From: Acidobacteriota bacterium
Lineage (GTDB): Bacteria; Acidobacteriota; Aminicenantia; UBA2199
NCBI GenBank assembly: GCA_018897435.1
Contig: JAHIKI010000049.1
Coordinates: 1-60,036, forward strand
Reading direction: 5' to 3'
DNA: 60,036 bases
Positions 25,985 through 57,491 of this stretch are shown piece after piece; the stretch's first letter is position 1, and the number at the start of each line of letters is the position of its first letter. A model generated the notes under the pieces. The model was not told the origin of the DNA. It saw nothing but the letters and a program-made list of their open reading frames with translations, and searched no databases. The position numbers and the translations under genes are program-made.

Positions 25985-26212
25985 CAAGTTCGATGTTTGA
26001 ACTTGAATGAAAAAAATAGCAATTAAATTCCAAATAACAAATCCCAAATAAATTCCAAGTTCCAAATTCCAATGTCCCAAACGAAGACACTTTCAGGTTA
26101 TCTTTTCTTTGTTTTGGTCATTTGGTTATTGGAATTTGGTGCTTGTTTGTAATTTGGTGCTTGGGATTTGGAATTTTCTTTCTCGTCACGCGTCACTTGT
26201 CACGGAGCTCGC
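25985..26212. repeat. heptad-periodic hairpin element E2 (CCAAATT type plus flanking arms)
   Basis: Left arm AAATTCCAAATAACAAATCCCAAATAAATTCCAAGTTCCAAATTCCAATGTCCCAAAC lies at 26025-26082. Right arm TTTGTTTTGGTCATTTGGTTATTGGAATTTGGTGCTTG...GGGATTTGGAATTTT lies at 26108-26178. The tail is CTCGTCACGCGTCACTTGTCACGGAGCTCG. Confidence 0.8.
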
Positions 26213-26264: not shown

Positions 26265-27602
26265 ATGAAGAAAATACTGATTGTTGACGACGAAAAGAAC
26301 ATCCAGGTTTCGCTGGCCACAGTGCTCGAAGATGAAGGTTACCAGGTCTATTTCGCCAAGGATGGAAAAGAAGGGATCGAAAAATTCAAGAACATCAAGC
26401 CCGACGCGATCTTTCTGGATATCTGGATGCCCGGCATGGATGGTCTGGAGGTCATCAACCGCATCCTGGCTATCGATCCGCTGCAGATCATCATCATGAT
26501 CTCCGGGCATGGTTCGGTGTCGGCGGCGGTTTCGGCCCTGAAGGCCGGCGCCTACGATTTTCTGGAAAAGCCGCTCAGTTTGGACAAGGTGATCTTCGTG
26601 CTTAAGCGCGGCCTGGAATTCCGTCAGGTCCGCGACGAGAACATCAAGCTGAAGACCATACTCGACCAGGAAGACGAATTGGCCGGCAACGATGAAAAAA
26701 AGAGGCTGCTGCGCGAAAGCACGGCCACCCTTGATTTTGAAGCCGCCGACCCGCAGTATCTCCGTAAGCAGCGCACCGTGGCCCTGAGCAATATCATCTA
26801 CGGCATCGGCCTGCATTCGGGCGAGAAAACCGGTATGGTCATCAAGCCTCTGCCGCCGAACAAGGGCATCCGTTTTGAAAACATATCCAAAAAAAACTAC
26901 ATTCCTGCCCGTATCGAATACCTCAATACTACCGGCTACGCTACTTCGATCAAGAAAGACGATCTGGAAGCCCGGACCATCGAACATCTCCTGGCCGTGC
27001 TGCACGCTTTCGGCATCACCAACCTGGCCGTCAAGATCAACAAGGAAGTCCCCATTGATGACGGTTCGGCCATCAATTTCTGCGATTTCATCAAGGAGTG
27101 CGGCATTGTCGACCAGGCCGAAGAAATTCCCGAGATCGTCATTACCCGGCCCCTGCTCATTGGCGAGGAGACCCACGACGGGAAATTCATCAAGATCGAG
27201 CCGGCCGATGTCTTTTCGGTCCGTTATACCTGCATTTACCCCGAACCTCTGGGCCGCCAGAGTTATGAATTCGTCATGCATTCGAGCGAAGATTTTCAGC
27301 GCGAGATCGCCCCGGCCCGCACCTACGGTTTCGTGGACGATTTCAACAAGCTCAGCGACATGGGGCTGGCTGAAGGCGGCCGCATGAACAATTTTATACT
27401 GATCGACAGGGACAGGATCATCAACACCACCCTGCGTTTCCCCGAAGAATTGGCCCGCCACAAGATCCTGGACATCATCGGTGATTTTTACATGTTGGGC
27501 CGGCCGATCCGCGGCAAGATCACCGCCCAGAAAACCGGACATACCGACAACGCCAAGATGGTCAACATGGTCAAGGACACGTTCCTGAAGACCAAGTCCT
27601 AA
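26265..27602 (+). CDS. lpxC: response-regulator receiver domain fused to UDP-3-O-acyl-GlcNAc deacetylase (LpxC)
   Basis: The N-terminal REC has VDDE, IFLDIWMPGMDG, MISGH and EKP. The C-terminal 280 aa are LpxC with GLHSGEK, TIEHLLA (E78/H79), HKILDIIGD (H238/D242/D246) and KTGHTDN (H265). Confidence 0.85.
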   Translation: MKKILIVDDEKNIQVSLATVLEDEGYQVYFAKDGKEGIEKFKNIKPDAIFLDIWMPGMDGLEVINRILAIDPLQIIIMISGHGSVSAAVSALKAGAYDFLEKPLSLDKVIFVLKRGLEFRQVRDENIKLKTILDQEDELAGNDEKKRLLRESTATLDFEAADPQYLRKQRTVALSNIIYGIGLHSGEKTGMVIKPLPPNKGIRFENISKKNYIPARIEYLNTTGYATSIKKDDLEARTIEHLLAVLHAFGITNLAVKINKEVPIDDGSAINFCDFIKECGIVDQAEEIPEIVITRPLLIGEETHDGKFIKIEPADVFSVRYTCIYPEPLGRQSYEFVMHSSEDFQREIAPARTYGFVDDFNKLSDMGLAEGGRMNNFILIDRDRIINTTLRFPEELARHKILDIIGDFYMLGRPIRGKITAQKTGHTDNAKMVNMVKDTFLKTKS

Positions 27603-27933
27603 AGGCAAAAGTAAAAAGGCAAAAGTTAGGAAAAGAGGCACTTTTAAGAATTATTCAATTCCAATTGATTTGGTTTTTTAACCCCCTTTATTAAGGGGGG
27701 TGGCGCAGCCGGGGGGATCCGGATTTTGATGAAATATTTCTTTATGACGATATTTAGATCCCCCCTGTTTCCCCCCTTCGGTAAGGGGGGAGTGAAATGG
27801 GGAATGTATTGATTTTCTGTATAATATTCGCCGTAAGCCGTTCGCGGATTTCTATTCTTAAATTTTTACTTTTGCCTTTTGCCTTTGTCTTTCTCTTCCC
27901 CGTCACGCGTTACGTAGTTTTGTCACTTCCGAC
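27599..27933. repeat. heptad-periodic hairpin element E3 (AAAGGCA type) with a structured insert in its loop
   Basis: Left arm AAAGGCA AAAGTAA AAAGGCA AAAGTTA GGAAAAG starts on the lpxC stop codon. Right arm TTTTTACTTTTGCCTTTTGCCTTTGTCTTTCTC lies at about 27862-27896. The tail GTCACGCGTTACG..TTGTCAC lies in the nth 3' end. Confidence 0.8.
27680..27791. other. G6/C6-run stem-loop cluster inside the E3 loop
   Basis: Hairpin CCCCCTTTATTAAGGGGGG (27682-27700). A perfect 9-bp inverted repeat GGGGGGATC (27711-27719) / GATCCCCCC (27757-27765). Hairpin CCCCCCTTCGGTAAGGGGGG (27771-27790). Confidence 0.6.
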
Positions 27934-31880: not shown

Positions 31881-32621
31881 ATGGCTGCCGCCAAGGCCAA
31901 GTACAAGCGGATTCTTTTAAAGCTGAGCGGTGAAGCCCTTCAGGGCGGAGATTCCTTCGGCATCAGCCATGATGTCATCAGTATTATCGCCGCCGAGATC
32001 AAGGAAATTCATGACCTGGGGGTGGAGATCGCCATCGTAACCGGCGGCGGAAATTTTTTCCGCGGCGGCAAAGCGGGCGAGTTGGGCATTGACCGTGCCT
32101 CCGCCGATTACATGGGCATGTTGGCCACCATGATCAACGGTGTCGCCCTGCAGAACGCCCTGGAAAAAAAAGGGGTCCATTGCCGCTTGATATCGGCCCT
32201 GGCCGTCCAGGAGATCGCTGAACCTTTTATTCCCCGCCGGGCCATCCGCCATTTGGAAAAAGGCCGGGTAGTGATATTTGCCGCCGGCACCGGCAACCCC
32301 TTCTTCACCACCGACACCGCTGCTGCCCTGCGCGCCATTGAGATCAAGGCCGATATCCTGCTCAAAGCCACCAAGGTTGAAGGTGTATTTTCCGCTGATC
32401 CTAAAAAAGTCAGGAACGCAACCCAGTTCCGCCATATTTCCTACTCCGAAGTTCTGGCCAAGGAACTGAAGGTAATGGACAGCACGGCCATCTCGCTGAG
32501 CAAAGACAACGGGCTGTGCATCAAGATCTTCAACATCAGCGGCCGGGGCAATATCAAGAAAGCCATTACCGGCTGCGATATCGGAACGCTGATCAATTTG
32601 AAAGGAGAAGGCGATGATTAA
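31881..32621 (+). CDS. pyrH: UMP kinase
   Basis: [23 protein letters not shown] and [17 protein letters not shown]. Confidence 0.95.
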
Positions 32622-33171
32622 AGAGATCCTGGACCAAGCCAGGGGCGATATGCGGAAAATGGAAGAGGATTTCAAGAAACAGTTGTCTAAATTCCGTACC
32701 GGACGGGCTTCGGTATCGATCCTGGACGGTATCCTGATCGATTATTACGGCGTGCCCACGCCGATCAACCAGCTGGCCACCCTGGGTGTCCCCGAGGCCA
32801 ACCTGATCATCATCCAGCCCTGGGACAGCAAGATCATCAATGATGTCGACAAGGCCATCCGGGCCGCCAACCTCAACATCAACCCCGTCTCCGACGGCAA
32901 GGTCATCAAACTGCCGATCCCGCCCCTGGACCAGCAGCGCCGCCTGGACATAATCAAGACCTTGAAAAAATACACCGAAGAGCGCAAGACCCATGTCCGC
33001 AACGTTCGCCGCGATTACCGCGACACGATCAAGGCCATGAAAGAGGAAAAAGAGATCAGCGAAGATGACGAAAAACGCGCTCATGACGAATTACAGAAAA
33101 TAATCGATGCCATCAACGAAAGGATCGACAGCATCGTAAAGGAAAAAGAAAAACACATCATGGAAGATTAG
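32614..33171 (+). CDS. frr: ribosome recycling factor
   Basis: 185 aa with [12 protein letters not shown] and [20 protein letters not shown]. Confidence 0.95.
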
Positions 33172-33184
33172 GCATTCCTGGACT

Positions 33185-33520
33185 CGGTATAAGGTTTACG
33201 GTAGACGGTTTACGGTAAGAAAAGGCAAAGCACCAAGCTCCAAGCACCAAATAACAACTAAATTCCAAGCTCCAAATTCCAATGTCCTAAACAAAGAAGT
33301 GAATGGGTAGAAGGGTTAATGAGTTGAAGGGTTAAGAAAACCGAAATCGTTTGCTGTCATTGCCGTTGTCCCATCAACTCATCAACATTTGATTGCTCTC
33401 TTTGTTTTGGTCATTTGGATATTGGAATTTTGTGCTTGTTTTTGATTTGATGCTTGGGATATGGAATTTTTCTTTAGTTAACCGTCAAACGTACACCGTC
33501 AACCGTCTGCCGAGCTCGTT
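33185..33520. repeat. compound hairpin element E5: three heptad-periodic hairpins nested in one another
   Basis: Outer arms are GGTTTAC GGTAGAC GGTTTAC GG (33196-33218) and CCGTCAAACGTACACCGTCAACCGTC. Middle arms are CCAAGCT/CCAAATT type (33226-33296 and 33397-33468). Inner arms are GGGTAGA AGGGTTA ATGAGTT GAAGGGT (33306-33336) and CCCATCAACTCATCAAC. It ends with GAGCTCG. Confidence 0.8.
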
Positions 33521-33527
33521 TCTGCGC

Positions 33528-34403
33528 CTACGCCCCTGACTTGCGGCGGCGCAGGATAAAACTCACGCCGCTGCCGATGGCAAAGAAATCCATAACGATC
33601 AGCAGCAGGGCGGCCGGAAAGGGCAGGAATTTGAGCAGGGTGTAAATGGCGATGCCCATAACGATAAAAAGCGGGGCGCTGACTTTCAGTTTCATGGCCG
33701 CGGCGATCCTGCCGCCAACAAAATAAAAAATCACGGCGCGGCCAAAGATCAGCAGCAAAAAATAGGCGGCGATCAGCATGATCAGCAAAGGGATGCCGAT
33801 CAGCACCATGCTCATGAGCAGGAAGCTGAGCAGCAGCAGCGTGAAAGCCAACAACGTGACCAGGCCGCGCAGCAGATGGCGCAGCGGAGTTTCCCCCAGC
33901 ATGATGGCCGCCCGGCCGACCGCTGCGGGCAGGATCAGCAGCGTCAGCAGCGTCAGGATAAGCCAGAAAAATATTTTACTGATCTTGAAAAAGGTCAGCC
34001 CCCCCGATTCGGGCAGAAAAGGCAGCAGGGAACGGGCGATCTTTTTCAGGTCTTTTTGGGTGCGGACATGATACAACTGGCCGCCGATCTTACAGCGCTC
34101 CGCTTTTTCGAGGCGGCCGCCGATCACGATCAGGTCCAGGCCGATCACGGCCTTTTCGCCGATCGCCACCTGGGAAGCGATGCAGATGACATCGCCGCTG
34201 ACCTCTCCGTCCAGGATAAGTGATCCACCCACAAGGAAAATCGATTCGTCAACCTTACCATTGATGCGCAACGAGGTATTGAAGGCGTTGATGGCCGTAG
34301 TGCGGATTTCGCCCGCGGCCACCTTGATCTCTTTGCCGTCTGCGGCGGTCAATAGCAATCCGGCCGCAACCAGAAAGAAAAGCAGGAAATGGATTTTTTT
34401 CAT
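33528..34403 (-). CDS. membrane protein with periplasmic bactofilin-like (polymer-forming) beta-helix domain
   Basis: Signal peptide, a repetitive G-x-V/I beta-helix segment (GKVDESIFLVGGSLILDGEVSGDVICIA) and about 5 TM helices. It lies in an operon with the anti-sigma and ECF sigma genes. Confidence 0.6.
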   Translation of the reverse strand: MKKIHFLLFFLVAAGLLLTAADGKEIKVAAGEIRTTAINAFNTSLRINGKVDESIFLVGGSLILDGEVSGDVICIASQVAIGEKAVIGLDLIVIGGRLEKAERCKIGGQLYHVRTQKDLKKIARSLLPFLPESGGLTFFKISKIFFWLILTLLTLLILPAAVGRAAIMLGETPLRHLLRGLVTLLAFTLLLLSFLLMSMVLIGIPLLIMLIAAYFLLLIFGRAVIFYFVGGRIAAAMKLKVSAPLFIVMGIAIYTLLKFLPFPAALLLIVMDFFAIGSGVSFILRRRKSGA

Positions 34404-40203: not shown

Positions 40204-42690
40204 ATGTCCTACCTCGAAATCATAGACGCTCACAAGCATAACCTGAAGCACCTGCACCTGCGCCTGCCCAAAAAACAATTGATCGTGATCAGCGGCGTTT
40301 CGGGATCGGGCAAATCCACCCTGGCTTACGACACGATCTTCCAGGAAGGGCAGCGCAAGTACCTGGAGTCACTTTCCGCCTATGCCCGCCAATTCATCAA
40401 GTCCCTGGAGCGGCCCGAAGTCCAATCAATCAAGGGCATCGCCCCCACCATCTCCATCGACCAGAAGCACTCTTCCTTTCACTTCAACTCCACGGTGGGC
40501 ACGATCTCCGAGATCGCCCCCTACCTGCGGCTGCTTTTTGCCAGGCTGGCCGAGGCCCATTGCCCGCAGTGCGGCGACAGAATCAGCCGCTACTCGGTTG
40601 AAAAAATCGGCCAGGCCATTTTTAGCCGGTTTTCAGGAAAGCTGGTCCAACTCTTCAGCCCGGTGGTGCGCGGCCGCCGCGGCCATTACCAGGCATTATT
40701 CGAAAAATACCGCAAGCGCGGCTTCCTCAAAACACTGGTCAACGGCAAGGTGCATTATCTGGACGATGTTCCGCTTCTGGACCGCAATAGCCGCCACCAT
40801 ATCGCGGTGCAGATCGATGCCGTTGATGTCGAGTCCGCCAACCGTGAGCGCGTCGCCGCCAGCGTCACCCTGGCACTGAACGAAGGCAACGGTGAGCTCT
40901 TGGTCCGCTGCCAGGGCCAGGATACGTTTTTTTCCAACCGCCTGCACTGCCCCCGCTGCGATATTTCCTTAAGCGAACCCCAACCCGGGACCTTTTCCAG
41001 CAATTCTCCCGAAGGGGCCTGTCCTGATTGCCTGGGCACCGGCCAGAGCGGCGAAGACCGCTTGTGCCCGGTATGCACCGGGGCCAGCCTGAAGCGCGAA
41101 AGCCTGGCTTTTTATTTTCGCGGCAAAAACATTTATGAATTGGGAGAAATGGAGATCGCCGACCTGCTCGATTTTTTCAAAGCAGTGCGCCTCTCCCTAA
41201 GCGAAAGCGGGGTCGGCCGGCCGCTGCTGCCGCACATCATCCAGCGTTTGCAATCCTTTGTCACCTTGAACCTGGGTTACATTTCACTGAACCGCAGGAT
41301 CAACACCATTTCCGGTGGAGAACTGCAGCGCGCCCGCCTGGTTTCCCAGCTGGGTTTCAGTTTGAGCGGCATCATTTACATTCTGGATGAGCCCTCCATC
41401 GGCATGCACTTTTCCGAACAGCTCAACCTGCTCGGTATCCTGCGTCAACTGCGCGAAAAAGGCAACACCCTGATCGTGGTCGAACATGATGAGGAGACCA
41501 TCCTCGCCGCCGATACCATCGTGGATATCGGCCCCGGGGCCGGTGAGTGGGGCGGTGAGATCATGTATGCCGGCCCCCTGGGCGGTTTTGCTGCCGCTGA
41601 AAACTCCCTGACCTCAGCCTATGTGTACGGCCGCCGTCGCATCGCGCCGTCCCAAATACGTAGAACCGCGGCCGCCGCTTTCCTCAACATCGCCGGAATT
41701 ACCCTGAACAACCTGAAAAACGTTCACTTGAAAATTCCCTTGAACCGCCTGACCGTGGTCAGCGGAGTTTCCGGGTCAGGGAAAAGCTCCCTGATCATCG
41801 ATGCCCTGGTGCCGATCCTGCGCCGGGAATTGGCAGGCCTGCCCCTGGCCGATTCCAGGCTGGCCTGCGGAGCGTTAGCCGACCTAAACGGCATCAAGCG
41901 GGTGCTGATGGTCAACCAGTCGGCCATCGGCAAGAATTCGCGCTCCTGCCCGGCCACATATATCGGCGTCATGGCCATGGTGCGTGACCTTTTCGCCGCC
42001 CTGCCCGAAGCCAGGGTCAGGGGTTATGCCTCGGGACGCTTCAGCTACAACGTGCGCGGCGGCCGCTGCGAGGCCTGCCAGGGTATGGGGGTGCAAAAAC
42101 TGCAGATGAGCTTCCTGCCGCTGCTGGAGATCACCTGCCCGGTCTGCGAAGGACGGCGCTACAATTCCGAAACGTCCCAGGTCAAGTTCAAGGGCAGCTC
42201 CATCGCCGATGTGCTCGACCTGACGGCCAGCGCAGCGTTCGAACTTTTCGCCAATATCCCGCCGCTGGCCCGCAAGATTCGCATCCTGCTCGATGTCGGA
42301 CTGGGCTACCTGCGCTTGGGCCAGAGTTCGCAAACCCTTTCCGGCGGCGAATCGCAGCGCATCAAGCTGACCAAGGAACTGGCCCGCCTGTCGGGTTCTC
42401 CCACTGTTTATGTGCTGGACGAACCCACGGTCGGGCTGCATTTTGATGACGTGCGCAAGCTGATCGATGTGTTCCAGGCCCTGATCGGGCGCGGCCACAC
42501 CGTGGTGGTCATCGAGCACAACCAGGAAATGATCAGGGTGGCCGATCACCTGGTCGACCTGGGGCCGGGGGGCGGCAAGAACGGCGGCAAGATCGTTTAC
42601 CAGGGGGATGTCCAGGGCATTGTCAAGTGCAAGGGGTCAATTACGGGGAAGTATCTGAAGAAAAAGCTAATGAAGCCTGAGCTGTCGTGA
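40204..42690 (+). CDS. uvrA: UvrA-family excinuclease ATPase, short form lacking the insertion domain
   Basis: Two ABC modules (GVSGSGKSTL twice, LSGGELQR and LSGGESQR) and zinc modules CPQC, CPRC..CPDC, CPVC and CEAC..CPVC. It is 828 aa against about 940 for canonical UvrA. Confidence 0.85.
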   Translation: MSYLEIIDAHKHNLKHLHLRLPKKQLIVISGVSGSGKSTLAYDTIFQEGQRKYLESLSAYARQFIKSLERPEVQSIKGIAPTISIDQKHSSFHFNSTVGTISEIAPYLRLLFARLAEAHCPQCGDRISRYSVEKIGQAIFSRFSGKLVQLFSPVVRGRRGHYQALFEKYRKRGFLKTLVNGKVHYLDDVPLLDRNSRHHIAVQIDAVDVESANRERVAASVTLALNEGNGELLVRCQGQDTFFSNRLHCPRCDISLSEPQPGTFSSNSPEGACPDCLGTGQSGEDRLCPVCTGASLKRESLAFYFRGKNIYELGEMEIADLLDFFKAVRLSLSESGVGRPLLPHIIQRLQSFVTLNLGYISLNRRINTISGGELQRARLVSQLGFSLSGIIYILDEPSIGMHFSEQLNLLGILRQLREKGNTLIVVEHDEETILAADTIVDIGPGAGEWGGEIMYAGPLGGFAAAENSLTSAYVYGRRRIAPSQIRRTAAAAFLNIAGITLNNLKNVHLKIPLNRLTVVSGVSGSGKSSLIIDALVPILRRELAGLPLADSRLACGALADLNGIKRVLMVNQSAIGKNSRSCPATYIGVMAMVRDLFAALPEARVRGYASGRFSYNVRGGRCEACQGMGVQKLQMSFLPLLEITCPVCEGRRYNSETSQVKFKGSSIADVLDLTASAAFELFANIPPLARKIRILLDVGLGYLRLGQSSQTLSGGESQRIKLTKELARLSGSPTVYVLDEPTVGLHFDDVRKLIDVFQALIGRGHTVVVIEHNQEMIRVADHLVDLGPGGGKNGGKIVYQGDVQGIVKCKGSITGKYLKKKLMKPELS

Positions 42691-42812
42691 TGAGTAATGA
42701 GTGATAAGTGATGAGAAACTGCATTGGAACGAAATATCCGCAAGATTCTTTTCTTTCTCATAACTCATCACTAAAGATCGCTGAGTTCGTTCACTCATCA
42801 CTCAGCCGAGTC
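42685..42812. repeat. heptad-periodic hairpin element E8 (GTGATGA type)
   Basis: Left arm CGTGATG AGTAATG AGTGATA AGTGATG AGAAAC contains the uvrA stop codon. Right arm is TTCTTTTCTTTCTCATAACTCATCAC. A linker TAAAGATCGCTGAGTTCGT is followed by TCACTCATCAC. Confidence 0.85.
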
Positions 42813-45930: not shown

Positions 45931-46671
45931 ATGGCTGCCGGTATCTTCCAGGCGGCGCGACTGCTGGCAGGCGCCGGCCATGTCACCGTGTTCAGCGGTG
46001 CCGGCATTTCGGTCGAAAGCGGCATTCCGCCTTTTCGAGGGGCCGGCGGCCTGTGGAGCATGGTGGATCCCGGTTTTATGGAGATCGACTATTTTCGCCG
46101 CCAGCCGGAACAATCCTGGTTGAGGATCAAGGAGATTTTTTACGATTATTTCGGCCGGGCCCTGCCCAACGATGCCCATTTCGGCGTGGCCGCCATGGAA
46201 AAAGCCGGGCTGGTCAAGGCGATCATCACCCAGAATATCGACAACCTGCACCAGCGCGCCGGCAGCCGTGAGGTTATCGAGTTCCACGGCAATTCACAAT
46301 GGCTGGTCTGCCTGGACTGCCTCGAGCGCGAGGCGGTGAGCCTCGGGCGGCTGGCTGTCCTGCCGCCGCGCTGCCCCTCCTGTGGGGGCCTGCTTAAGCC
46401 CGATTTTATTTTTTTCGGCGAGGGCATTCCGGAAAAGGCGCTGCAGCGTTCCTACCAGGAGGTTTCCCGGGCCGACGTTTTCCTGGTCATCGGCTCAAGC
46501 GGCGAGGTCATGCCGGCTTGCCAGATCCCGCCCCTGGCCAAGGCCCGCGGCGCCAAAATGATCGAGATCAACACCGTGGAGTCACATTTCACGCCTATCA
46601 GTGACATTTTCCTGAAGGGACCGGCGACGGAGACGGTTGGGGCTTTAGTCAAGGAACTTGGTATACGGTAG
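45931..46671 (+). CDS. cobB: NAD-dependent protein deacylase (Sir2 family)
   Basis: GAGISVESGIPPFRG, TQNIDNLHQRAG, zinc ribbon C..C...C..C (CLDC, CPSC) and catalytic H in EFHGN. Confidence 0.9.
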   Translation: MAAGIFQAARLLAGAGHVTVFSGAGISVESGIPPFRGAGGLWSMVDPGFMEIDYFRRQPEQSWLRIKEIFYDYFGRALPNDAHFGVAAMEKAGLVKAIITQNIDNLHQRAGSREVIEFHGNSQWLVCLDCLEREAVSLGRLAVLPPRCPSCGGLLKPDFIFFGEGIPEKALQRSYQEVSRADVFLVIGSSGEVMPACQIPPLAKARGAKMIEINTVESHFTPISDIFLKGPATETVGALVKELGIR

Positions 46672-46822
46672 ACGGTATACGGTTGACGGAAGAAAAAGAT
46701 TCAAATCCAAAGCTGCAAATCAGTGATAGTGATAGTGGTAGCGGAAATACATATTGATCGAATTTATATTTCGGATTTTTTGTTTTCCTAACACTAACAC
46801 TAACACTAACACTAACACAGTT
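46660..46822. repeat. hairpin element E9: unpaired GGTATAC-type left arm plus a hexamer-periodic inner hairpin
   Basis: GGTATAC GGTAGAC GGTATAC GGTTGAC GG spans the cobB stop codon. The inner arms are GTGATA GTGATA GTGGTA and (TAACAC)x5. Confidence 0.75.
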
Positions 46823-46869: not shown

Positions 46870-48915
46870 ATGCTAAAAAAGCTTCACAAACTCAACCTGG
46901 CCATTATCCTGTCGGCAGTAGCCGCCATTCTGGCTTACTTCTTTTTTCAGCCTGGCACTTTCCAGTTCTTCCTGTTGCTGACCATAATTCTCGCCTTTGT
47001 CCGCCTGCTGGGCATCATCCGCCGCCGCCTGCTCTGGAAGATCCGCAACCGGCTGATCATCTCTTCGCTGTTTTTCATCGTCACCCCCATCGTACTGATC
47101 ACGGTCTTTTTCTACCTGATCATCAACCTCATCATCACCCAGTACAACACGGCCATCTTCGAAAACCTGATGGTCAACGAGATCCGCTCCTTTGAAGAAA
47201 GCAGCGGCTATTACCTCGGCCTAGCCGACGATGTAAGGATCAAGCTCGAGGTGCAGCGTTTCAAAAACCGCAAGCCGCGTTTCCTGAACCTGGCTTTTTT
47301 CAAGGAGACGGACGGGCGCTACCAGGCGTTTTTTACCTATCCCGGGGACTTGCCCCTCGAGACATTCGATGCCAACGGCCCGCTGGCCAAGTTCCAAGCC
47401 GGCTATTTCAAGGTTGGCGGCGTTCTCTATCACGGCGTACATCAGCAGCGCGGCGGCTACGCGGCGCTGATTTTCGAGACCCTGAACCAGGAGTTTTTCG
47501 ACGCCATGCCGCCCATCGGCGACTTCAAGGTGCTGTTCATGGGTGCAGGCGGCAATACGCTCTCCGCCTCCTCGCAGGAGATGTCGGAGCGCCTCAACGA
47601 CAAGGATTTCGTCGGTTTCGAAAAATACCATTTCCCTTTTCCCTTCACCTTCCGCTTCTGGGATTTCGATGATCTGAAGAACGGGCAGCCCACCCTCAAG
47701 TTCAACATGTTCCTGCTGATCAACGACTATTCGAAGATCATGCAGAAACTGAAAACCTCTGACCGCGCCGCCATGCTGCAGGACCAGGCAAAGGTACTGG
47801 AAAAGGAGATCAGCCGCGGCGGCGACCAGGCTGCGCTCATGAGCAAAAGCCAGCAGTTGGACGAATTGAAAAAAGAACTTCAGGTGCTGCAAAAACGCGA
47901 CAGCCAGAGCTCGGTCTTTCCCATCTCGGTGCTGGTGCGTTTCATGCTCGGCCTGTTCGGCTTTTTCATTGTTATCTCCTTTTTCATCGGCTTGCGCATG
48001 GTGCGCGTCATCACCCGCGCCGTCAACGAGCTGACCAAGGGCACCGAAAAGATCCGCCGCGGTGATTTTTCCTACCGCATCCGCATCAAGTCGCAAGAGC
48101 AGATGCATTTCCTGGCCGAATCGTTCAATGACATGGCCTCCGGCATCGGCCGCCTGCTGAGCGAGGAAAAGGAAAAGCAGCGCTTGCAAGAGGAGCTGCG
48201 CATCGCCCGCGGTATCCAGCTGAAGCTGCTGCCCGCCGACCATTTCGCATGCCCGGAGTTTAACATCGCCGCGGTCAACATCCCGGCCACGGAGATCGCC
48301 GGCGATTATTTCGATTACTTTCACCGCCCCGGTAAATTCCTTTCGGTCCTGGTGGCCGACGTCTCGGGCAAGGGTGCCCAGGCTGCATTCTACATGGCCG
48401 AGCTGAAGGGCATCATGAACTGCCTGCAGAAGACCGGCCAGGAGCCGGCGGCCATCCTCAGCGAATGCAACGTCATCCTGCAGAGTTCTTTTGAGAAGGT
48501 CACCTTCATCACCATCAACCTGGTCCGTTTTGACCTGCAGAACAAGAACCTGATCTTTTCCCGGTCCGGCCACACGCCGGCCCTGTTTTACCAGAGCGAC
48601 AAGCAGGCCTGCCTGGAGCTGTCGCCGCACGGCATGGCCCTGGGGCTGAACAATTTCAGCCAGGAGGGCATCGAAGAGCTGCGTCTGCCATATCAAAGAG
48701 GCGATATCCTGTTCTTCTTTTCCGACGGTCTTTCCGAGATCATGAACCAGGAAGAGCAAATACTGGGCGTCGCCGAGTTGAAAAACATGCTGGTCGGCTA
48801 CGCCGCCCTTTCGGCGCTGGAGATCAAGGAGAAGATCCTGGCCCGGGCCATCGCTTTCGCCGCCGGCCAGGCCAACGCCGACGACCTGACCTTCGTGGTG
48901 ATGAAGGTTCGTTGA
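46870..48915 (+). CDS. membrane-bound PP2C-type phosphatase (HAMP + SpoIIE domains)
   Basis: N-terminal TM helices, a large extracytoplasmic region and a HAMP domain (LRMVRVITRAVNELTKGTEKIRRGD). The SpoIIE/PP2C domain has GDYFDY, DVSGKG and DGLSE. Confidence 0.85.
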   Translation: MLKKLHKLNLAIILSAVAAILAYFFFQPGTFQFFLLLTIILAFVRLLGIIRRRLLWKIRNRLIISSLFFIVTPIVLITVFFYLIINLIITQYNTAIFENLMVNEIRSFEESSGYYLGLADDVRIKLEVQRFKNRKPRFLNLAFFKETDGRYQAFFTYPGDLPLETFDANGPLAKFQAGYFKVGGVLYHGVHQQRGGYAALIFETLNQEFFDAMPPIGDFKVLFMGAGGNTLSASSQEMSERLNDKDFVGFEKYHFPFPFTFRFWDFDDLKNGQPTLKFNMFLLINDYSKIMQKLKTSDRAAMLQDQAKVLEKEISRGGDQAALMSKSQQLDELKKELQVLQKRDSQSSVFPISVLVRFMLGLFGFFIVISFFIGLRMVRVITRAVNELTKGTEKIRRGDFSYRIRIKSQEQMHFLAESFNDMASGIGRLLSEEKEKQRLQEELRIARGIQLKLLPADHFACPEFNIAAVNIPATEIAGDYFDYFHRPGKFLSVLVADVSGKGAQAAFYMAELKGIMNCLQKTGQEPAAILSECNVILQSSFEKVTFITINLVRFDLQNKNLIFSRSGHTPALFYQSDKQACLELSPHGMALGLNNFSQEGIEELRLPYQRGDILFFFSDGLSEIMNQEEQILGVAELKNMLVGYAALSALEIKEKILARAIAFAAGQANADDLTFVVMKVR

Positions 48916-49652
48916 TGGAAGAACTGGAAAAAAAACTGGGCTATCGTTTTAAGGATCGTGATCTGCTGCGCTCCGCTCTGACCCACAAATCGTTCAACGA
49001 AGGCGGCAAGAACCACGGCCTCGACAACGAGCGGCTGGAGTTCCTGGGCGATTCGGTTATCGGCCTGGTCATCACCGACTACCTGTACCGGCGCTGCCGG
49101 GACAACCGCGAGGGCGATCTGGCCAAGCTGCGCGCCCACCTGGTTTCGAGCAACCTGCTGTTCAAAGTGGCCAAGACCATCGGTTTGGGCGGCCACATCC
49201 TGCTCGGTCGCGGCGAGGAAAAGAACCAGGGCCGGCGCAATAGCAAGATCGTCTCCTCGTGCTTCGAAGGCCTGATCGGCGCCCTTTACCTGGATTCCGA
49301 CTTCGCTACCGCAACCGCGGTCATTGTCGAACGCTTCCGTGAATTCCTGGAGCAGCTGCTCAACAGCGAAATGCGCATCAACGACTACAAATCGGAGCTG
49401 CAGGAACTGATCCAGAAACACAAGAACATCCTGCCCGTTTACAAGGTGACGGCCGAGATCGGCAAGCCGCCCGACATGACGTTCCGTGTGGCCGTGTACC
49501 TGGAAAACAGCGAGATCGGCAGCGGTAGCGGCCGCAACCGCCGCGAAGCCGAGCAGGAAGCGGCATTGATCGCCCTGAAGAACATCGGCAATTTCATGAA
49601 TTTCGAAAAGCTGTCGGAAACGTTCTTCGCCGAAAAGCCCAAAGGCTCGTAG
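48912..49652 (+). CDS. rnc: ribonuclease III
   Basis: Signature NERLEFLGDSV, plus a C-terminal dsRBD (YKSELQELIQK...GSGSGRNRREAEQEAA). Confidence 0.95.
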   Translation: MMEELEKKLGYRFKDRDLLRSALTHKSFNEGGKNHGLDNERLEFLGDSVIGLVITDYLYRRCRDNREGDLAKLRAHLVSSNLLFKVAKTIGLGGHILLGRGEEKNQGRRNSKIVSSCFEGLIGALYLDSDFATATAVIVERFREFLEQLLNSEMRINDYKSELQELIQKHKNILPVYKVTAEIGKPPDMTFRVAVYLENSEIGSGSGRNRREAEQEAALIALKNIGNFMNFEKLSETFFAEKPKGS

Positions 49653-49750
49653 GAGCTCAGTGATTAGTAATTAGTGATGAGTGATTAGTTAAGAAATTAA
49701 ACGGAATTTACTGACTCTTTCTCTTTCCAGTCACTAATCATTTATTAAAG
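49653..49750. repeat. heptad-periodic hairpin element E10 (GTGATTA type)
   Basis: GAGCTC is followed by AGTGATT AGTAATT AGTGATG AGTGATT AGTTAAG AAA. The right arm TCTTTCTCTTTCCAGTCACTAATCA is short. Confidence 0.75.
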
Positions 49751-49811: not shown

Positions 49812-50033
49812 ATGGCAACGAAGAAAGTAGTAAAAAAAGTGAAAAAAGCCGTGAAGCCGGTCTTGAAAAAGAAAGTGAACCCCGTGCTCAAGAAAAAAGC
49901 CAAACCTGTGGCCAAGAAAATCGAACGCTACGCCTGCGGGGTCTGCGGCCTAGTGGTGGCGGTGGACCAGGCCTGCGGCTGCGCTCATGTCCACAGGCTG
50001 ATTTGCTGCGCTAAGGTTATGAAGAAGAAATAA
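49812..50033 (+). CDS. Lys-rich tail fused to a desulforedoxin-like Cys4 domain
   Basis: The N-terminal 37 aa are about 45 percent Lys (KKVVKKVKKAVKPVLKKK). The C-terminus YACGVCGLVVAVD...LICCAKVM parallels desulforedoxin YKCELCGQVVKV...LVCCGEDM. Confidence 0.6.
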   Translation: MATKKVVKKVKKAVKPVLKKKVNPVLKKKAKPVAKKIERYACGVCGLVVAVDQACGCAHVHRLICCAKVMKKK

Positions 50034-50205: not shown

Positions 50206-50233
50206 AATAATTTCATCTATGGAGGCACCAACA

Positions 50234-50557
50234 ATGACTTATACTCACGCTGAACTAAAGAAAAAAACCGTAGCCGAACTGCGCGAGATCGCCAAAGGGA
50301 TCGAGCATGAAGCGGTGCAGGGGTACTCGCAGTTGAACAAGGAGCACCTCCTGGTCGCGCTATGTAAAGCATTGAACATCGATATGCACGAGCACCGCCA
50401 GGTGGTGGGACTGAACAAGGCCCAAGTCAAGACCAACATCCGCCACATCAAGGAAAAGCTCGCCGCGGCCATCGCCGCCCACGATCGCAAGCAGATCAAG
50501 TTCTGCCACCGCCAGATCCACAAACAAAAAAGGCAGATACACAAAGCCATGGTTTAG
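50234..50557 (+). CDS. small basic protein with Rho-N/SAP-like N-terminal motif
   Basis: 107 aa. LKKKTVAELREIAKGI resembles the Rho termination factor N-terminal helix-extended-helix. GGAGG lies 8 nt upstream of the ATG. Confidence 0.5.
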   Translation: MTYTHAELKKKTVAELREIAKGIEHEAVQGYSQLNKEHLLVALCKALNIDMHEHRQVVGLNKAQVKTNIRHIKEKLAAAIAAHDRKQIKFCHRQIHKQKRQIHKAMV

Positions 50558-50566
50558 AAGCGCGAA

Positions 50567-50785
50567 CGATTGTAATTAGTAATGAGTAATGAGTGATAAG
50601 TGATGAGTGATGAGTGATGAGAAACCGCTTTAAAACGAAATATCAACAAGATTCTTTTTCTTTCTCATTACTCATCACTAAAGATCGTTGATTTCGTTCA
50701 CTCATCACTATAGTTCGTAAGGTCTTCTTTCTCATCACTCATCACTGAAGATCGCTGAGTTCGTTCACTCATCACTGATCTGCGA
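50567..50785. repeat. heptad-periodic hairpin element E12 (GTGATGA type, right module duplicated)
   Basis: The left arm has 8 heptads, GTAATTA..GTGATGA GTGATGA GAAAC. The right module TTCTTTCTCAT(T)ACTCATCACT(A/G)AAGATCG(T/C)TGA(T/G)TTCGTTCACTCATCACT occurs twice in tandem. Confidence 0.85.
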
Positions 50786-51788: not shown

Positions 51789-52919
51789 ATGAGCATAACG
51801 GTCAAAGAAGTGCTGAACAAAAAAGACCTGAAAGCATTCGTCAAGCTGCCTTTTGCCATGTACAAGGACGACCCCATGTGGGTGCCGCAACTCATCCGCG
51901 ACGACATGGAGGTCTTCAACCGCGCCAAGAATCCGGCTTTCGACAATGCCGACGCCCGGCAGTTCCTGGCATACAAGGACGGTAAGGCGGTCGGGCGCAT
52001 CGCCGCCATCTTGAGCAGTGTTGCCAACCAGAAATACAACACCAGGAACCTGCGCTTCGGCTGGTTCGATGCTCCCAACGATCCCGCAGTGGCCGCCGCC
52101 CTGTTCAGGACCGTCGAGGCTTGGGCCAAAGAGTTGGGCATGGAGACGCTCACCGGCCCGCACGGCTTCTGCGACCTCGACCCCCAGGGCATGCTGGTCG
52201 AGGGTTTCGACCAACTTCCCACCATCGCCGGCTACTACAATTTTCCCTACTACCAGAAGCTGGTCGAAGATCTTGGCTTCCAGAAGGAGGTCGATTATGT
52301 CGAATTCCGCACCCATGTGCCGGAAATGTCGGCTTTTCCCGAAAAGCTGCTGCGCCTGGCCGAGCGCATCAAGGAGCGCGGCGGCCTGCGTGTGCTGAAG
52401 TTCGCCGCCAAAAAAGAGCTCCTGGGCCGCGCCGAGGAGCTGTTCCACCTGCTGGACGAGACCTTCGAGGAAATTTACGGCGCCGTGCCCCTGACCGAAA
52501 GGCAGATCCATTATTTCATCAAAAAATATTTTTCCTTCGTGGACAAGGACCTGATCCAGGCCGTGGTCAACGAGAAGGACGAGATGGTCGGCTTCATGAT
52601 CGCCATGCCCAACTTTTCGCGCGCCTTCCAGAAAGCCAGGGGCCGCCTGCTGCCCCTGGGCTGGTGGCACCTGCTGCGGGCCATAAAGAAGAACGACGTC
52701 CTGGATTTCTACCTGGCCGGCATCAAGAAAAACTACCGCGGCCAGGGGGTGGACCTGCTGATGGTGGTGGAAATGGCCCACAAGGCCATAGCCAAGGGCT
52801 TCCGCTACACCGAGAGCAACCAGGAGCTGGAGACCAACACCAAGATCCAGGCGCAGTGGAAATATTTCAATCCGGTCCAGCACAAAAGGAAAAGGATATT
52901 TAAAAAAGTGCTTAAATAA
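51789..52919 (+). CDS. GNAT-family N-acetyltransferase (long form)
   Basis: 376 aa. The C-terminal acetyl-CoA motif region is YLAGIKKNYRGQGVDLLMVVEMAHKA. The N-terminal family region is FVKLPFAMYKDDPMWVPQL. Confidence 0.7.
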   Translation: MSITVKEVLNKKDLKAFVKLPFAMYKDDPMWVPQLIRDDMEVFNRAKNPAFDNADARQFLAYKDGKAVGRIAAILSSVANQKYNTRNLRFGWFDAPNDPAVAAALFRTVEAWAKELGMETLTGPHGFCDLDPQGMLVEGFDQLPTIAGYYNFPYYQKLVEDLGFQKEVDYVEFRTHVPEMSAFPEKLLRLAERIKERGGLRVLKFAAKKELLGRAEELFHLLDETFEEIYGAVPLTERQIHYFIKKYFSFVDKDLIQAVVNEKDEMVGFMIAMPNFSRAFQKARGRLLPLGWWHLLRAIKKNDVLDFYLAGIKKNYRGQGVDLLMVVEMAHKAIAKGFRYTESNQELETNTKIQAQWKYFNPVQHKRKRIFKKVLK

Positions 52920-53054
52920 GGGAAGAGAGAGGGAAGAATTAGGGAAGAAAAAGGGAAGAGAGAGTAAGAAAGAAGAAGTTAATTGAAATTTTATCTTATT
53001 CTTACTTTGTCTTCCCTCATTTTTCCTTCTGCATTTCCCTCCTTCTTCCCTAAG
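52917..53054. repeat. heptad-periodic hairpin element E14a (GGGAAGA type), complete hairpin upstream of a 4HB gene
   Basis: Left arm GGGAAGA GAGAGGG AAGAATT AGGGAAG AAAAAGG GAAGAGA GAGTAAG AAAGAAG starts on the GNAT stop codon. Right arm is CTTACTTTGTCTTCCCTCATTTTTCCTTCTGCATTTCCCTCCTTCTTCCCTAAGG. Confidence 0.85.
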
Positions 53055-53065
53055 GAAAGGTTTCT

Positions 53066-53455
53066 ATGAATTGGAGAGATTTGCAAGTTTGGAAAAAGTC
53101 ACATTTATTGACCAAGCAAATTTATCAAATTACAAGGGGTTTTCCGAAAGAAGAAAGGTATGGATTGACCTCACAGATTCAAAGAGCTGCCTATTCTGTT
53201 CCACTCAATATCGTTGAAGGGCATAGCAGGAAAACTGCAAGGGAGTTTTTGCAGTATTTAAATATTGCACGTGGTTCCTTAGAAGAGTTACGGTATTTAT
53301 TGATGCTTGGATGTGAAATAGATTACATTTCGATTCCTGACAGGGAGAATTTGGAGAGTGCGGCCGCTGAGGTCTGTATCATGCTCGATGCCTTGATCAA
53401 ATCCTTGCAAAGAGGGAAAGCAAATCGAAGGAAAGTAGAGATATCGAAAAGTTAA
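53066..53455 (+). CDS. four-helix-bundle protein (23S rRNA intervening-sequence protein / Avd family), copy 1
   Basis: Family motifs L.VW, FPKEERYGLTSQIQRAAYSVPLNIVEG, EF..YL.IARGSLEEL. 129 aa. Confidence 0.9.
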   Translation: MNWRDLQVWKKSHLLTKQIYQITRGFPKEERYGLTSQIQRAAYSVPLNIVEGHSRKTAREFLQYLNIARGSLEELRYLLMLGCEIDYISIPDRENLESAAAEVCIMLDALIKSLQRGKANRRKVEISKS

Positions 53456-53463
53456 TGTATTCG

Positions 53464-53523
53464 CTTTTTCCTACTACTTCTTCCCTCATTCTTCCCTCCG
53501 GCTTTCCCTTTCTCTTCCCTTAA
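53464..53523. repeat. E14b: second GGGAAGA-type right arm downstream of 4HB copy 1
   Basis: CTTTTTCCTACTACTTCTTCCCTCATTCTTCCCTCCGGCTTTCCCTTTCTCTTCCCTTAA is about three-quarters identical by eye to the right arm at 52995-53054. Confidence 0.8.
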
Positions 53524-53537
53524 TTTATAATATTCAA

Positions 53538-54033: not shown

Positions 54034-54114
54034 AGTTTGAAGAAAGTAATTAGTTAAGAAAATAAAATGCTACGAAGAAAGTGATTAGTGATTAGTGATG
54101 AGTGATTAGAAAAG
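54034..54114. repeat. E15a: AGTAATT-type arm plus GTGATTA-type left arm upstream of 4HB copy 2
   Basis: AGTTTGAAGAAAGTAATTAGTTAAGAAAA is followed by AGTGATT AGTGATT AGTGATG AGTGATT AGAAAAG (54080-54114). Confidence 0.8.
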
Positions 54115-54115
54115 A

Positions 54116-54568
54116 ATAAACCGATCAATAATGATACAAGGCCACCGAGATCTGAATGTTTGGAAAAGAAGTATGGAACTGGTTGAGGATCTCTATCAAT
54201 GTACTAAGGACTTTCCGAAAGAGGAAATTTATTCCCTGACTTCCCAAATTCGCCGTTCTGTCGTTTCGATACCCAGTAATATTGCTGAAGGAGCTGCCCG
54301 AAATTCAAAAAAGGAATTTATCCAGTTTCTCCACATTGCCCTCGGGTCCACCTCAGAACTTGAAACTCAATTGATCATCTCGGGTCGACTGGGATATCTG
54401 AAAGAAACTTCTGGGCATCTGAACAAATTGGATGAAATCAAAAAAATGCTGCTGGGCCTCTTGTCATTTGTCAAAAAGAACAAATAAAAAATTGTCATAT
54501 GCATTTTCTCTTCACTCAGCACTCTTTCTCATCACTAATCACTCATCACGCATCACTTATAACCGATC
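54116..54568 (+). mobile_element. candidate insertion cassette (4HB gene plus one right arm) bounded by the direct repeat ATAA(A)CCGATC inside a hairpin loop
   Basis: ATAAACCGATC lies at 54116-54126 and ATAACCGATC at 54559-54568. Removing the interval leaves a canonical left arm-loop-right arm element. Confidence 0.35.
54131..54487 (+). CDS. four-helix-bundle protein (23S rRNA IVS protein / Avd family), copy 2
   Basis: DLNVWKRS, FPKEEIYSLTSQIRRSVVSIPSNIAEGAAR, EFIQFLHIALGSTSELETQL. 118 aa. Confidence 0.9.
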   Translation: MIQGHRDLNVWKRSMELVEDLYQCTKDFPKEEIYSLTSQIRRSVVSIPSNIAEGAARNSKKEFIQFLHIALGSTSELETQLIISGRLGYLKETSGHLNKLDEIKKMLLGLLSFVKKNK

Positions 54569-54620
54569 GAGGACTTATGTATTTTCTCATCACTCATCAC
54601 TCATCACTTATCACTTATAA
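54504..54620. repeat. E15b: two GTGATGA-type right arms downstream of 4HB copy 2
   Basis: CTTTCTCATCACTAATCACTCATCACGCATCACTT, then the linker ATAACCGATCGAGGACTTATGT, then ATTTTCTCATCACTCATCACTCATCACTTATCACTTATAAT. Confidence 0.85.
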
Positions 54621-56393: not shown

Positions 56394-56663
56394 ATGCACA
56401 ATCCTGAAATAACCAAATTCATCCACGAACACAGCCAGTATTTCTGGTATACCCCGGAGACTGAAAAGGAAAACATCAGCCCGGAATTGCTGCTGGAAAC
56501 CATATTGAATGATGGCGACATGGATGCCGTTCGCGAACTTTTCAAGGTCATGGGCATAAAAAACGCGGCCAGCGTGTTTTTCAGTGCTGCCGGCAGAAAA
56601 AAAATGAATTACTATCCCGAAATTTATCATTTCTTTTCACTGCTTTTCAAACGCCATGCATAA
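56394..56663 (+). CDS. small protein, putative partner (antitoxin?) of the downstream nucleotidyltransferase
   Basis: 89 aa. It overlaps the downstream AbiEii-like gene by 8 nt and has its own consensus promoter. I recognise no family. Confidence 0.5.
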   Translation: MHNPEITKFIHEHSQYFWYTPETEKENISPELLLETILNDGDMDAVRELFKVMGIKNAASVFFSAAGRKKMNYYPEIYHFFSLLFKRHA

Positions 56664-57270
56664 GGAAATCCTCAACACCGATCAGCTTGAGCTACTGGCG
56701 CTGGTGAGGAATTTTAAGCCCGAATTTTTCCTGGTGGGCGGCACGGCCATAGCCCTTCATATCGGTCACCGCCGTTCCAATGATTTCGATCTTTTTAAAA
56801 ACGGCGAATTGCGCCACAAAAAAATACTCGATACCGTAAAAACACACGGATTTCCGGTTCAGGTCACCCGCCGGGTAAGCGAACAGTTGAACCTGACAAT
56901 TAGTGGAGTGAAATTCACGTTTTTCGATTATCCTTTTCCCATAAAACCTGTTTGCGTGTTTGAAAACGTGATCGAACTTCCCGATATTTTGACTTTGGCG
57001 GCGATGAAGGCCTATGCTTTGAGCCGGCGTTCCAAGTGGAAGGATTACGTCGATCTGTATTTTATCATCAGGCACCATCATTCAATCGCAGAGATTTCCG
57101 CCAAAGCCGGCGCTATTTTCGGCGAACTTTTCTCGGAAAAAATGTTCCGGGCCCAATTGAGCTTTTTCGAAGACATCGACTTTACCGAGCCTTTGGAATA
57201 TTTGCCGCCCGCTGTTCCGGAAACTGTAATAAGGGAGTTCCTTGTCGAAAGGGCCACGGCGGTGATTTAG
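56656..57270 (+). CDS. nucleotidyltransferase, AbiEii/AbiGii toxin family (type IV TA-like)
   Basis: 204 aa. GGTAIALHIGHRRSNDFDLF matches the family's G-G-T-A...R.S.D.D nucleotidyltransferase core. Confidence 0.7.
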   Translation: MHKEILNTDQLELLALVRNFKPEFFLVGGTAIALHIGHRRSNDFDLFKNGELRHKKILDTVKTHGFPVQVTRRVSEQLNLTISGVKFTFFDYPFPIKPVCVFENVIELPDILTLAAMKAYALSRRSKWKDYVDLYFIIRHHHSIAEISAKAGAIFGELFSEKMFRAQLSFFEDIDFTEPLEYLPPAVPETVIREFLVERATAVI

Positions 57271-57302: not shown

Positions 57303-57491
57303 ATGCGCAATTCAAAACTAATTGCTAAAAAAAAAGAAAGGGAGATCCTGAAGTTGAGCAGGCTGACGCCGGAGGAACGGCTGAAAGAACAGGTAAAACT
57401 TAATGTCCGCATCAAAGAACTATTCTTTGCCGGCTTGAGCAGCAAGGGATTTTCCCGGACTGAGATCATCCGCTTGTGGAAGACAAAATGA
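57303..57491 (+). CDS. small basic protein, putative partner of the downstream nucleotidyltransferase
   Basis: 62 aa. Its stop overlaps the ATG at 57488 (ATGA). Confidence 0.4.
   Translation: MRNSKLIAKKKEREILKLSRLTPEERLKEQVKLNVRIKELFFAGLSSKGFSRTEIIRLWKTK

Follow-up and report, generated by a model that had tools for sequence, protein, structure and literature searches.

Nested tandem-repeat hairpins downstream of frr in an uncultured Aminicenantes bacterium as a probable stack of selfish, IVS-like repeats

Three concentric inverted repeats (element E5) occupy the gap between frr and the convergent gene behind it, and they are read here, with a probability of about 0.6, as a three-layer stack of selfish hairpin repeats of the intervening sequence (IVS) type, which encode no transposase, whose new copies enter the loops of existing hairpins and whose nests are copied again as a whole. 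The stretch of DNA analysed (the window; 60,036 nucleotides, G+C content 52.7%) originates from an uncultured Candidatus Aminicenantes bacterium. Hairpins of this class have four features in common: the arms are built from tandem 7-8-mers, the loop is short, and it is preceded on its 5' side by an AGAAA-type and followed on its 3' side by a TTTCT-type motif. The class comprises two forms, namely an ORF-less miniature (E5, E2 and E9) and a form with a PF05635 gene in the loop, the predicted product of which is an Avd-like four-helix bundle.

Frr (32614-33171) shared 83-96% identity with the Frr proteins of MAGs that mostly carry the label Aminicenantes, and the gene order was conserved. The following gap of 356 nt separates frr (+) from the gene 33528-34403 (-), to which no function was assigned, and contains E5 at positions 33182-33515. 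The earlier note had placed three hairpins inside one another between these two genes, and exactly this arrangement was confirmed there by inverted repeats and by the predicted fold. Each layer is built from its own tandem unit: ACGGTNN in the outer, CCAANNN in the middle and GGGTWRAN in the inner arms. The parts of E5, none of which was assigned a strand, are as follows (TRF, Tandem Repeats Finder).

33182-33225: outer left arm; ACTCGG terminus, (ACGGTNN)x4-5, junction AAGAAAAGG; TRF period 7/14; partner 33490-33512
33226-33299: middle left arm; K unit (GGCAAAG), CCAA-type heptamers, end AAACAAAGAAG; inverted repeats I1-I3
33300-33342: inner left arm; GGGTAGAA/GGGTTAAT/GAGTTGAA/GGGTTAAG, then AAGAAAACC; TRF period 16; inverted repeat I6; missing at the orthologous site of contig L012
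33343-33367: apical loop of the inner hairpin, from the MFE structure; conserved in the copy at L010:17630-17831
33368-33398: inner right arm and remnant of the middle loop; CCCATCAACTCATCAAC + ATTTGATTGCTC; I6; the remnant TGCTC also occurs in the empty loop of L012
33399-33469: middle right arm (TTGG-type); 85.6% identity over 90 nt to E2 (26106-26195), z = 15.2
33470-33515: junction and outer right arm; TTTCTTTAG, (NNACCGT)n, end CCGAGC; TRF period 7; inverted repeats I4/I5

The outer layer has the termini ACTCGG...CCGAGY. Complementarity was 88-89% between the outer arms (33198-33216 and 33490-33512), which pair imperfectly because two positions in each seven are variable, 73-82% between the middle arms (33228-33297 and 33399-33457) and 88% between the inner arms (33315-33331 and 33370-33386; units GGGTAGAA/GTTGAAGG). 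An AGAAA-like motif closes each left arm and a TTTCT-like motif precedes each right arm. As RNA, E5 was predicted to form a single nested hairpin without interruption; its folding energy of -109 kcal/mol corresponds to z = -5.8 and was reached by none of 100 dinucleotide shuffles. The 356-nt spacer was recovered with 100% identity in eight contigs from separate samples and assemblers, three of which stop inside E5; given this identity across independent contigs, E5 is not an assembly artefact.

The middle layer of E5 has a close relative elsewhere in the window, the element E2, and a third nest, E9, was compared alongside. Their parts, again without an assigned strand, are listed below.

26018-26087: E2 left arm (CCAA-type), read directly and aligned to E5
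26088-26102: E2 loop of 15 nt, unfilled; the L009 orthologue has a (GTGTCA)n hairpin there
26103-26182: E2 right arm (TTGG-type), then junction TTCTTTC; fold of E2, z = -5.6
26183-26205: orphan right arm (GTCACNN)x3 near E2; lost outer layer, of which the L017 orthologue retains both arms
46660-46720: E9 left arms, outer ACGGT-type, AAGAAAAAG, short CCAA-type; neither with a right partner
46721-46820: E9 inner hairpin, (AGTGAT)x3, loop, (CTAACA)x5; paired arrays, fold z = -3.1

The middle left arm of E5 was 84.7% identical to E2 over 59 nt (26029-26087; local-alignment z = 13.5 against dinucleotide shuffles) and the middle right arm reached the 85.6% given above. Both scores also exceeded all 1000 permutations of 7-nt blocks, and the homology therefore exceeds low complexity. 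The claim that the middle element is a close copy of E2 accordingly holds, in the sense of a paralogue, and the alignment bears out that E2 has a short loop where E5 carries the complete inner hairpin. The description of E2 as an empty-site copy is right as to the short loop; E2 is, however, a paralogue and a decayed nest, not the empty allele of the same site, and its GTCAC tail is what is left of an outer layer, as shown by L017, where both outer arms are kept. E9 is nested as had been proposed, but it lacks the middle right arm as well as the outer one. A base-by-base alignment of E2 with E5, by which the insertion junction was to be defined, gave no sharp junction. No target-site duplication was seen where the inner element or the outer layer meets the adjoining sequence, among copies too far diverged for a firm negative; neither feature can be defined because the loops are not conserved between copies.

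A true comparison of filled and empty sites, which the paralogues E2 and E5 could not give, was provided by orthologous loci. Gaps were compared genome by genome in contigs L009-L017, in which the gene order around frr is conserved, with L018 as a more distant relative. At the frr site of L012 (Frr 94% identical) the outer and middle layers are present around an empty loop of 13 nt, whereas the window and L009 hold the inner hairpin there. L009 carries the three layers and a fourth left arm, and its outer right arm is of a different type, (CGTTACG)n. In L010 and L013 a 'CCCC/GGGG' double hairpin lies inside the middle loop, the hairpin of L011 (Frr 95% identical) is an unrelated one of the (GTGTCA)n type, and L014 and L016 have one hairpin only. 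The outer left and outer right arms at the frr site of L009 and L010 belong to different unit types, from which it follows that arms also evolve or are replaced independently. The E2 site gave the reciprocal case, as its loop is empty in the window, filled by the (GTGTCA)n hairpin in L009 and filled also in L017; L012 and L013 have AGTGAT-type hairpins in place of the E2 type. Genuine filled and empty alleles thus exist at both sites. An empty allele may equally well be a deletion, hairpins being prone to deletion.

Turnover of the same pattern was seen at sites B, D, E and F, and at each of the sites A-F the unit type of the hairpin differs among relatives. In L018 (Frr 73% identical) hairpins are absent at all three intergenic sites checked (B, E and F), which fits expansion in a single lineage better than an essential function. 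At site D, each arm of the (GTGTCA)n hairpin at L011:11830-12090 consists of a 35-41-nt super-unit repeated about 2.5 times; several layers of one family nested symmetrically, or a parallel duplication, could account for this.

Of the 31 intergenic gaps of at least 60 nt in the window, 20 contain hairpin elements, as judged from Tandem Repeats Finder output and from the sequence itself, and these elements make up about 51% of the intergenic DNA. Their arm units form a limited vocabulary (AGTGATN/CGTGATG, ACGGTNN, CCAANNN, GGGTAGAN, AGGGAAGAG, AAGGCAAAAG and GTGTCA), and non-repetitive sequence is common to families across loci and genomes: positions 42687-42802 match both 50593-50709 and L012:20059-20175 with 88.9% identity. 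This segment belongs to an example of the commonest family.

42685-42805, no strand assigned: two-tier AGTGATG-type hairpin with TAAAGATCGCTGAGTTCGTTC interrupting its right arm; the uvrA stop codon lies in the first unit

The orientation shared by all hairpins is trivial, as the reverse complement of arm-AGAAA-loop-TTTCT-arm' keeps the same form, and was discarded as a finding. Stop codons of upstream genes were found inside or at the first repeat unit at 42688-42690 (uvrA TGA), 46669-46671 (Sir2 TAG), 58022-58024, 59138-59140 (TAG) and 59670-59672; a 7-nt unit containing TGA, TAG or TAA, present three times, places a stop in all three frames.

At the end of the window, 59673-60036 is a higher-order array of a 32-nt unit (3.8 copies; octamer of the ACGAGTAN type) followed by a complementary-type 53-nt unit (3.7 copies). 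Like the window, the six public contigs compared at the adjacent ORF (three displayed) all end within this array, so that its length is a minimum. A reading as four self-nested copies was rejected, as the 32-nt left and 53-nt right units are not mirror images and the contigs end inside. Other genes of the window were noted beside hairpins. The RNase III gene (48912-49652) is directly followed by an AGTGATT-type hairpin (49655-49745), 3' of which lie a Lys/Cys-rich small ORF (49812-50033) and a gene for a 112-aa Rho_N protein (50219-50557), each bracketed by hairpins. The hairpin-rich region is adjoined by two genes for toxin-like nucleotidyltransferases of the AbiEii/DUF6036 type (56656-57270 and 57476-58024), and 26265-27602 encodes a fusion of a response-regulator receiver domain with LpxC (PF00072 + PF03331) that is conserved in L009, L013 and L017.

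Outside the window, the 20-mer AAAGCACCAAGCTCCAAGCA was found in 63 metagenome contigs of 35-66% G+C, one of them assigned to Chthoniobacterales (Verrucomicrobiota), and hairpins with paired tandem arms were also present in Thermoanaerobaculia and Bryobacteraceae loci. By eye, the high-G+C soil hairpins among the 63 were mostly solitary (one contig identified, that of Chthoniobacterales) and the Aminicenantes-like ones nested; an automated search for outer arms around them assigned partners unreliably and its result was discarded.

Gene-bearing relatives were encountered in the window itself. Three ORFs (53066-53455, 54131-54487 and 59310-59672; mutual identity 47-49%) in a polysaccharide-synthesis region encode PF05635 proteins (23S rRNA IVS protein, Avd-like), and each is flanked by tandem-repeat arms. 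Two of the elements were delimited.

52910-53535, plus strand: PF05635 element; (AGGGAAGAG)n hairpin, ORF 53066-53455, second right arm at 53470-53535
54075-54620, plus strand: PF05635 element; (AGTGATT)x4, AGAAAAG, ORF 54131-54487, TTTTCTC, (NATCACT)n; Pfam E = 6e-40, flank-duplex z = -4.2

In L136 the counterpart of ORF 53066-53455 lies directly between a left and a right arm. Both ends of the second element (54075-54560 in this comparison) can be aligned with the hairpin 49655-49745, which has no ORF; the left arms agree at 38 of 40 bases. E5, E2 and E9 are likewise free of a PF05635 gene. A PF05635 ORF between complementary tandem-heptamer arms was also found in Nitrospira, Porticoccaceae, Victivallales, other contigs and metagenome loci; the contigs with the ORF in the loop are assigned to four further phyla, Cyanobacteria included. 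Cyanobacterial plasmids (Nostoc, Anabaena, Stanieria) showed the arrangement in three of four examined. One metagenome locus has two left arms, the PF05635 ORF and three right arms in succession. In the flank-duplex test, 10 of 17 PF05635 genes reached z <= -3, compared with 3 of 24 control genes. L135 and L136 encode an identical protein and differ in unit number, and at one orthologous locus the unit type has drifted between AGTGATT, AGTGATG and CGTAATG. PF05635 proteins are not known to have a catalytic activity, and Pfam scans of about 65 ORFs of the window yielded no transposase, integrase or reverse transcriptase.

Two cassettes were recorded for their surroundings. On the Anabaena sp. 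90 plasmid pANA02 (L147, 44265-44633) the cassette lies between cas6 and cas4, with about 12 (ACAGGTG) units upstream and a complementary array downstream. In L099, an unrelated locus, the arms of the PF05635 cassette are inside-out (TTGG...ORF...CCAA), and an IS200-like Y1 transposase gene (PF01797; L099:7706-8152) is located 4.6 kb away.

The preference for loops, also put forward in the earlier note, was borne out in part. In its favour are the filled and empty orthologous alleles and about seven foreign pieces (a G-type element, a V-type element, an extra T arm, K with a palindrome, and three times the 'CCCC' element) located exactly in the loops of CCAA-type hairpins, although the loop amounts to about 10% of that element. 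Under uniform and independent placement this distribution has P < 1e-3, a figure that is rough in view of possible inheritance of the events, the copying of composites and possible selection against insertions into arms. The 'CCCC' element occupies a CCAA loop in L009 (site B), L010 (site C) and L013 (site C), and two different complete hairpins side by side occur in none of the intergenic gaps of the window and L009-L017. The two short CCCC...GGGG hairpins form a separate repeat family (window 27680-27800; L009:4730-4840; L010:10690-10790; L013:10700-10840), members of which take the same position in the CCAA-type hairpin loop in three cases.

Qualifying the preference are the possible deletion of guests, the copying of composites and palindromes that enter arms. 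Small perfect palindromes were located in arms at sites A and E of L017 and in K segments of L009, L010 and L017, and loop preference is therefore limited to one class of elements. A REP-like perfect palindrome (GTAGGGGCGGTTCGCGAACCGCCCCTAC) recurs in the AAGRCAAAG segment of composites (L009 sites A and B, L010 site F, L017 site E) and was not found in the window. Since a loop insertion leaves the stem unbroken, biased survival and targeting are inseparable here.

Nests are also copied as units. The segment 33214-33414 of E5, comprising the middle arm and the inner hairpin with its loop, is 88.6% identical over 202 nt to L010:17630-17831, where it lies inverted between other genes and is again flanked by ACGGT-type arms; the frr nest may therefore have been built elsewhere. 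The order ACGGT, AAGRCAAAG, CCAA is repeated at sites A, B, C, E and F and in E9 (at least six loci), so that the two outermost layers appear to belong to a single composite family and not to be independent insertions. This fixed order, outer then middle, fits one composite element as well as it fits repeated nesting.

From these observations the following course is proposed. A new copy would enter an existing hairpin at the apical loop, either by targeting or because only insertions into the loop spare the stem of the host. The guest would supply a new loop, by which the process becomes repeatable and concentric layers could arise, and complete nests would be copied again to other hairpin sites. 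The arms would change quickly through slippage of whole units. Transcribed stems would form double-stranded RNA that is probably cut by RNase III, by analogy with rRNA IVSs, and hairpins at gene ends may serve as 3'-end or processing structures. Movement itself could proceed by loop-targeted insertion or by replacement of cassettes via shared arms.

The second of these modes leads to the strongest rival account, which we consider unlikely and more probable than the two others: homologous recombination between shared arms, by ectopic gene conversion or with incoming DNA, would replace the content between them, the frr nest would have arrived ready-made, and the loop would be merely the segment bounded by homology. 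The composite of middle and inner layers at the second locus in L010, with ACGGT-type arms bounding it there too, is what such exchange predicts, and the recurrent layer order at six or more loci, the 'CCCC' element at one relative position in three CCAA loops, the window without a transposase and the L135/L136 pair, whose arms must recombine or slip readily, all agree with it. Left unaccounted for are, however, the origin of the first nest of each kind, the arrival of hairpins at hairpin-free sites and the same 20-mer arm in Verrucomicrobiota and Aminicenantes; moreover, arms of 30-70 bp that match imperfectly are poor substrates for RecA-type recombination.

Growth in place, by which old hairpins would have expanded locally through slippage of 7-8-mers and palindrome-correcting template switching, each layer being one round of expansion, was judged improbable. 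Polymorphic unit number, drift of the unit type at an orthologous locus, higher-order repeats within single arms (the 32-nt and 53-nt units at 59673-60036) and the unlike left and right arm types of L009 and L010 speak for it. Such growth would nevertheless not lead to non-repetitive sequence, loops included, that is common to unlinked loci, nor to whole unit types swapped between genomes with 95% identical flanking proteins; the guests have loops and AGAAA/TTTCT borders of their own, and the 88.6% copy in L010 points to ectopic copies younger than the split of the host loci.

Equally little probability was given to the view that the hairpins are RNA structures under selection, serving this clade as bidirectional terminators or as sites of mRNA processing or stability, with nesting as selection for longer stems and the repeats as a by-product. 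The position at gene ends, in several cases beginning within the upstream stop codon, the presence of a hairpin in three of three convergent gaps and the retention of some hairpin at each orthologous site are in line with it, as are an A-rich tract before and a T-rich tract after each inner hairpin on both strands, canonical terminators that are not enriched (29 versus 26.7 +/- 5.7 in shuffles) and the RNase III gene at 48912-49652. Hairpins also lie between divergent promoters, however (E2, 39612 and 52910), L018 does without them at the three intergenic sites checked, and Rfam gave no match: at the gathering threshold only two tRNAs were detected in the window, besides one chance miRNA match with E = 0.2. 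Neither G-U wobble pairs nor stability is biased to the transcribed strand; as 16 hairpins gave no consistent bias of folding energy or G-U pairs relative to gene direction, this test speaks neither for nor against an RNA function. Function and selfish spread are compatible and do not exclude one another. Known classes of palindromic sequence were dismissed: sites meeting an intrinsic-terminator definition (G+C-rich stem of 5-20 bp, loop of 3-8 nt, T-run) were absent from the studied hairpins except for 27709-27722 inside the 'CCCC' element, integron attC sites are contradicted by the missing integrase (Pfam scans) and by arms that are tandem repeats without attC-type boxes (by eye), and a CRISPR reading was rejected on anatomy.

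Beyond the selfish stack at frr, a wider proposal is offered tentatively and with more doubt than belief: tandem-heptamer hairpins and PF05635 cassettes might constitute one transposase-less selfish superfamily that is spread over many phyla and homes to the apical loops of hairpins, with rRNA IVSs, cyanobacterial STRR arrays and the inverted heptamer pairs of Xanthomonas as its local faces and the Aminicenantes nests as the footprint of loop homing. If true, this would give a concrete, testable origin for three old puzzles, the intervening sequences of rRNA, the heptamer repeats of bacteria and the very abundant PF05635 four-helix-bundle proteins, would mean spread into hairpin loops without a recognisable transposase, and would account for the turnover of half the intergenic DNA between genomes with 95% identical proteins. 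A practical consequence is that the hairpins break metagenome assemblies, as illustrated by the three frr contigs stopping in E5 and by the array at 59.7-60.0 kb, in which every contig read stops.

Several known systems resemble these elements. A literature search for papers linking Aminicenantes, or PF05635, with heptamer hairpins found none. Cyanobacterial STRR are intergenic tandem heptamers, and small dispersed repeats (SDR) of Nostoc are reportedly very small mobile repeats of 21-27 nt units, nested mutually and within heptamer arrays (described by Elhai et al. in 2008), whereas the hairpins here measure 100-330 nt. In Xanthomonas, 70-75 arrays of the GGGAATC heptamer are arranged in convergent, inverted pairs with the capacity for stem-loop formation (PMC4692102), and TAACTGA heptamer repeats of bacteria have been reported as well (PMC4679880). 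Such bacterial tandem heptamers share with the present elements the intergenic arrays and their overlap with stop codons; in the Xanthomonas and TAACTGA reports, in contrast, the arrays are treated as G-quadruplex or protein-binding sites, and nesting, dispersed hairpin families and a link to PF05635 are not described.

REPs are G+C-rich extragenic palindromes of 20-40 nt that are moved by RAYT transposases, and IS1397 and ISKpn1, which insert specifically into REP loops, are a precedent for loop-targeting mobile DNA; this insertion is cited in PMC3116915. The likeness to REP, BIME and REPIN sequences consists in extragenic palindromes at gene ends. The arms here are, however, A+T-rich tandem heptamers, the window has no RAYT or Y1 transposase, and the REP-like palindromes of the relatives (GTAGGGGCGGTTCGCGAACCGCCCCTAC) enter arms, not loops.

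Bacterial MITEs such as Nezha and Chunjie are a further point of comparison, and nesting of MITEs has reportedly been analysed in maize and rice. Like MITEs, the hairpins are small, non-coding and present in many copies (20 of 31 gaps), have terminal inverted repeats, are nested and are related to a gene-bearing version via internal deletion (49655-49745 against the PF05635 element). They differ in that no transposase-bearing parent is known, the gene-bearing versions carrying only PF05635, and in that a hairpin of short tandem repeats makes up the element from end to end, whereas a MITE consists of two short TIRs around unique DNA.

The closest resemblance is to the IVSs of 23S rRNA. The Coxiella IVS in helix 45 has an S23p ORF in its loop and AGAAGA with a variable count of tandem heptamers upstream of the start codon, is cut by RNase III at the first repeat, and IVSs are regarded as selfish and horizontally spread (PMC4990558; also work on CPR rRNA insertions). 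IVSs of Coxiella, Leptospira and Salmonella share with the present elements a long stem of terminal inverted repeats inside an existing helix, with PF05635 in the loop of some; correspondingly, each layer of E5 sits in the loop of the next-outer layer and orthologues with empty loops exist. Like the Coxiella IVS, the PF05635 elements of the window have tandem heptamers and an AGAAGA-type motif close to the start of the ORF. The elements here differ in lying between protein-coding genes instead of in helix 25 or 45 of 23S rRNA (Rfam detected no rRNA gene in the window, and no IVS was found in rRNA of this organism), in having many arm families and in being nested in one another. By this analogy of anatomy and protein family the elements would be linked to rRNA IVSs, and the E5-type structure is best filed as an IVS-like or MITE-like palindromic element.
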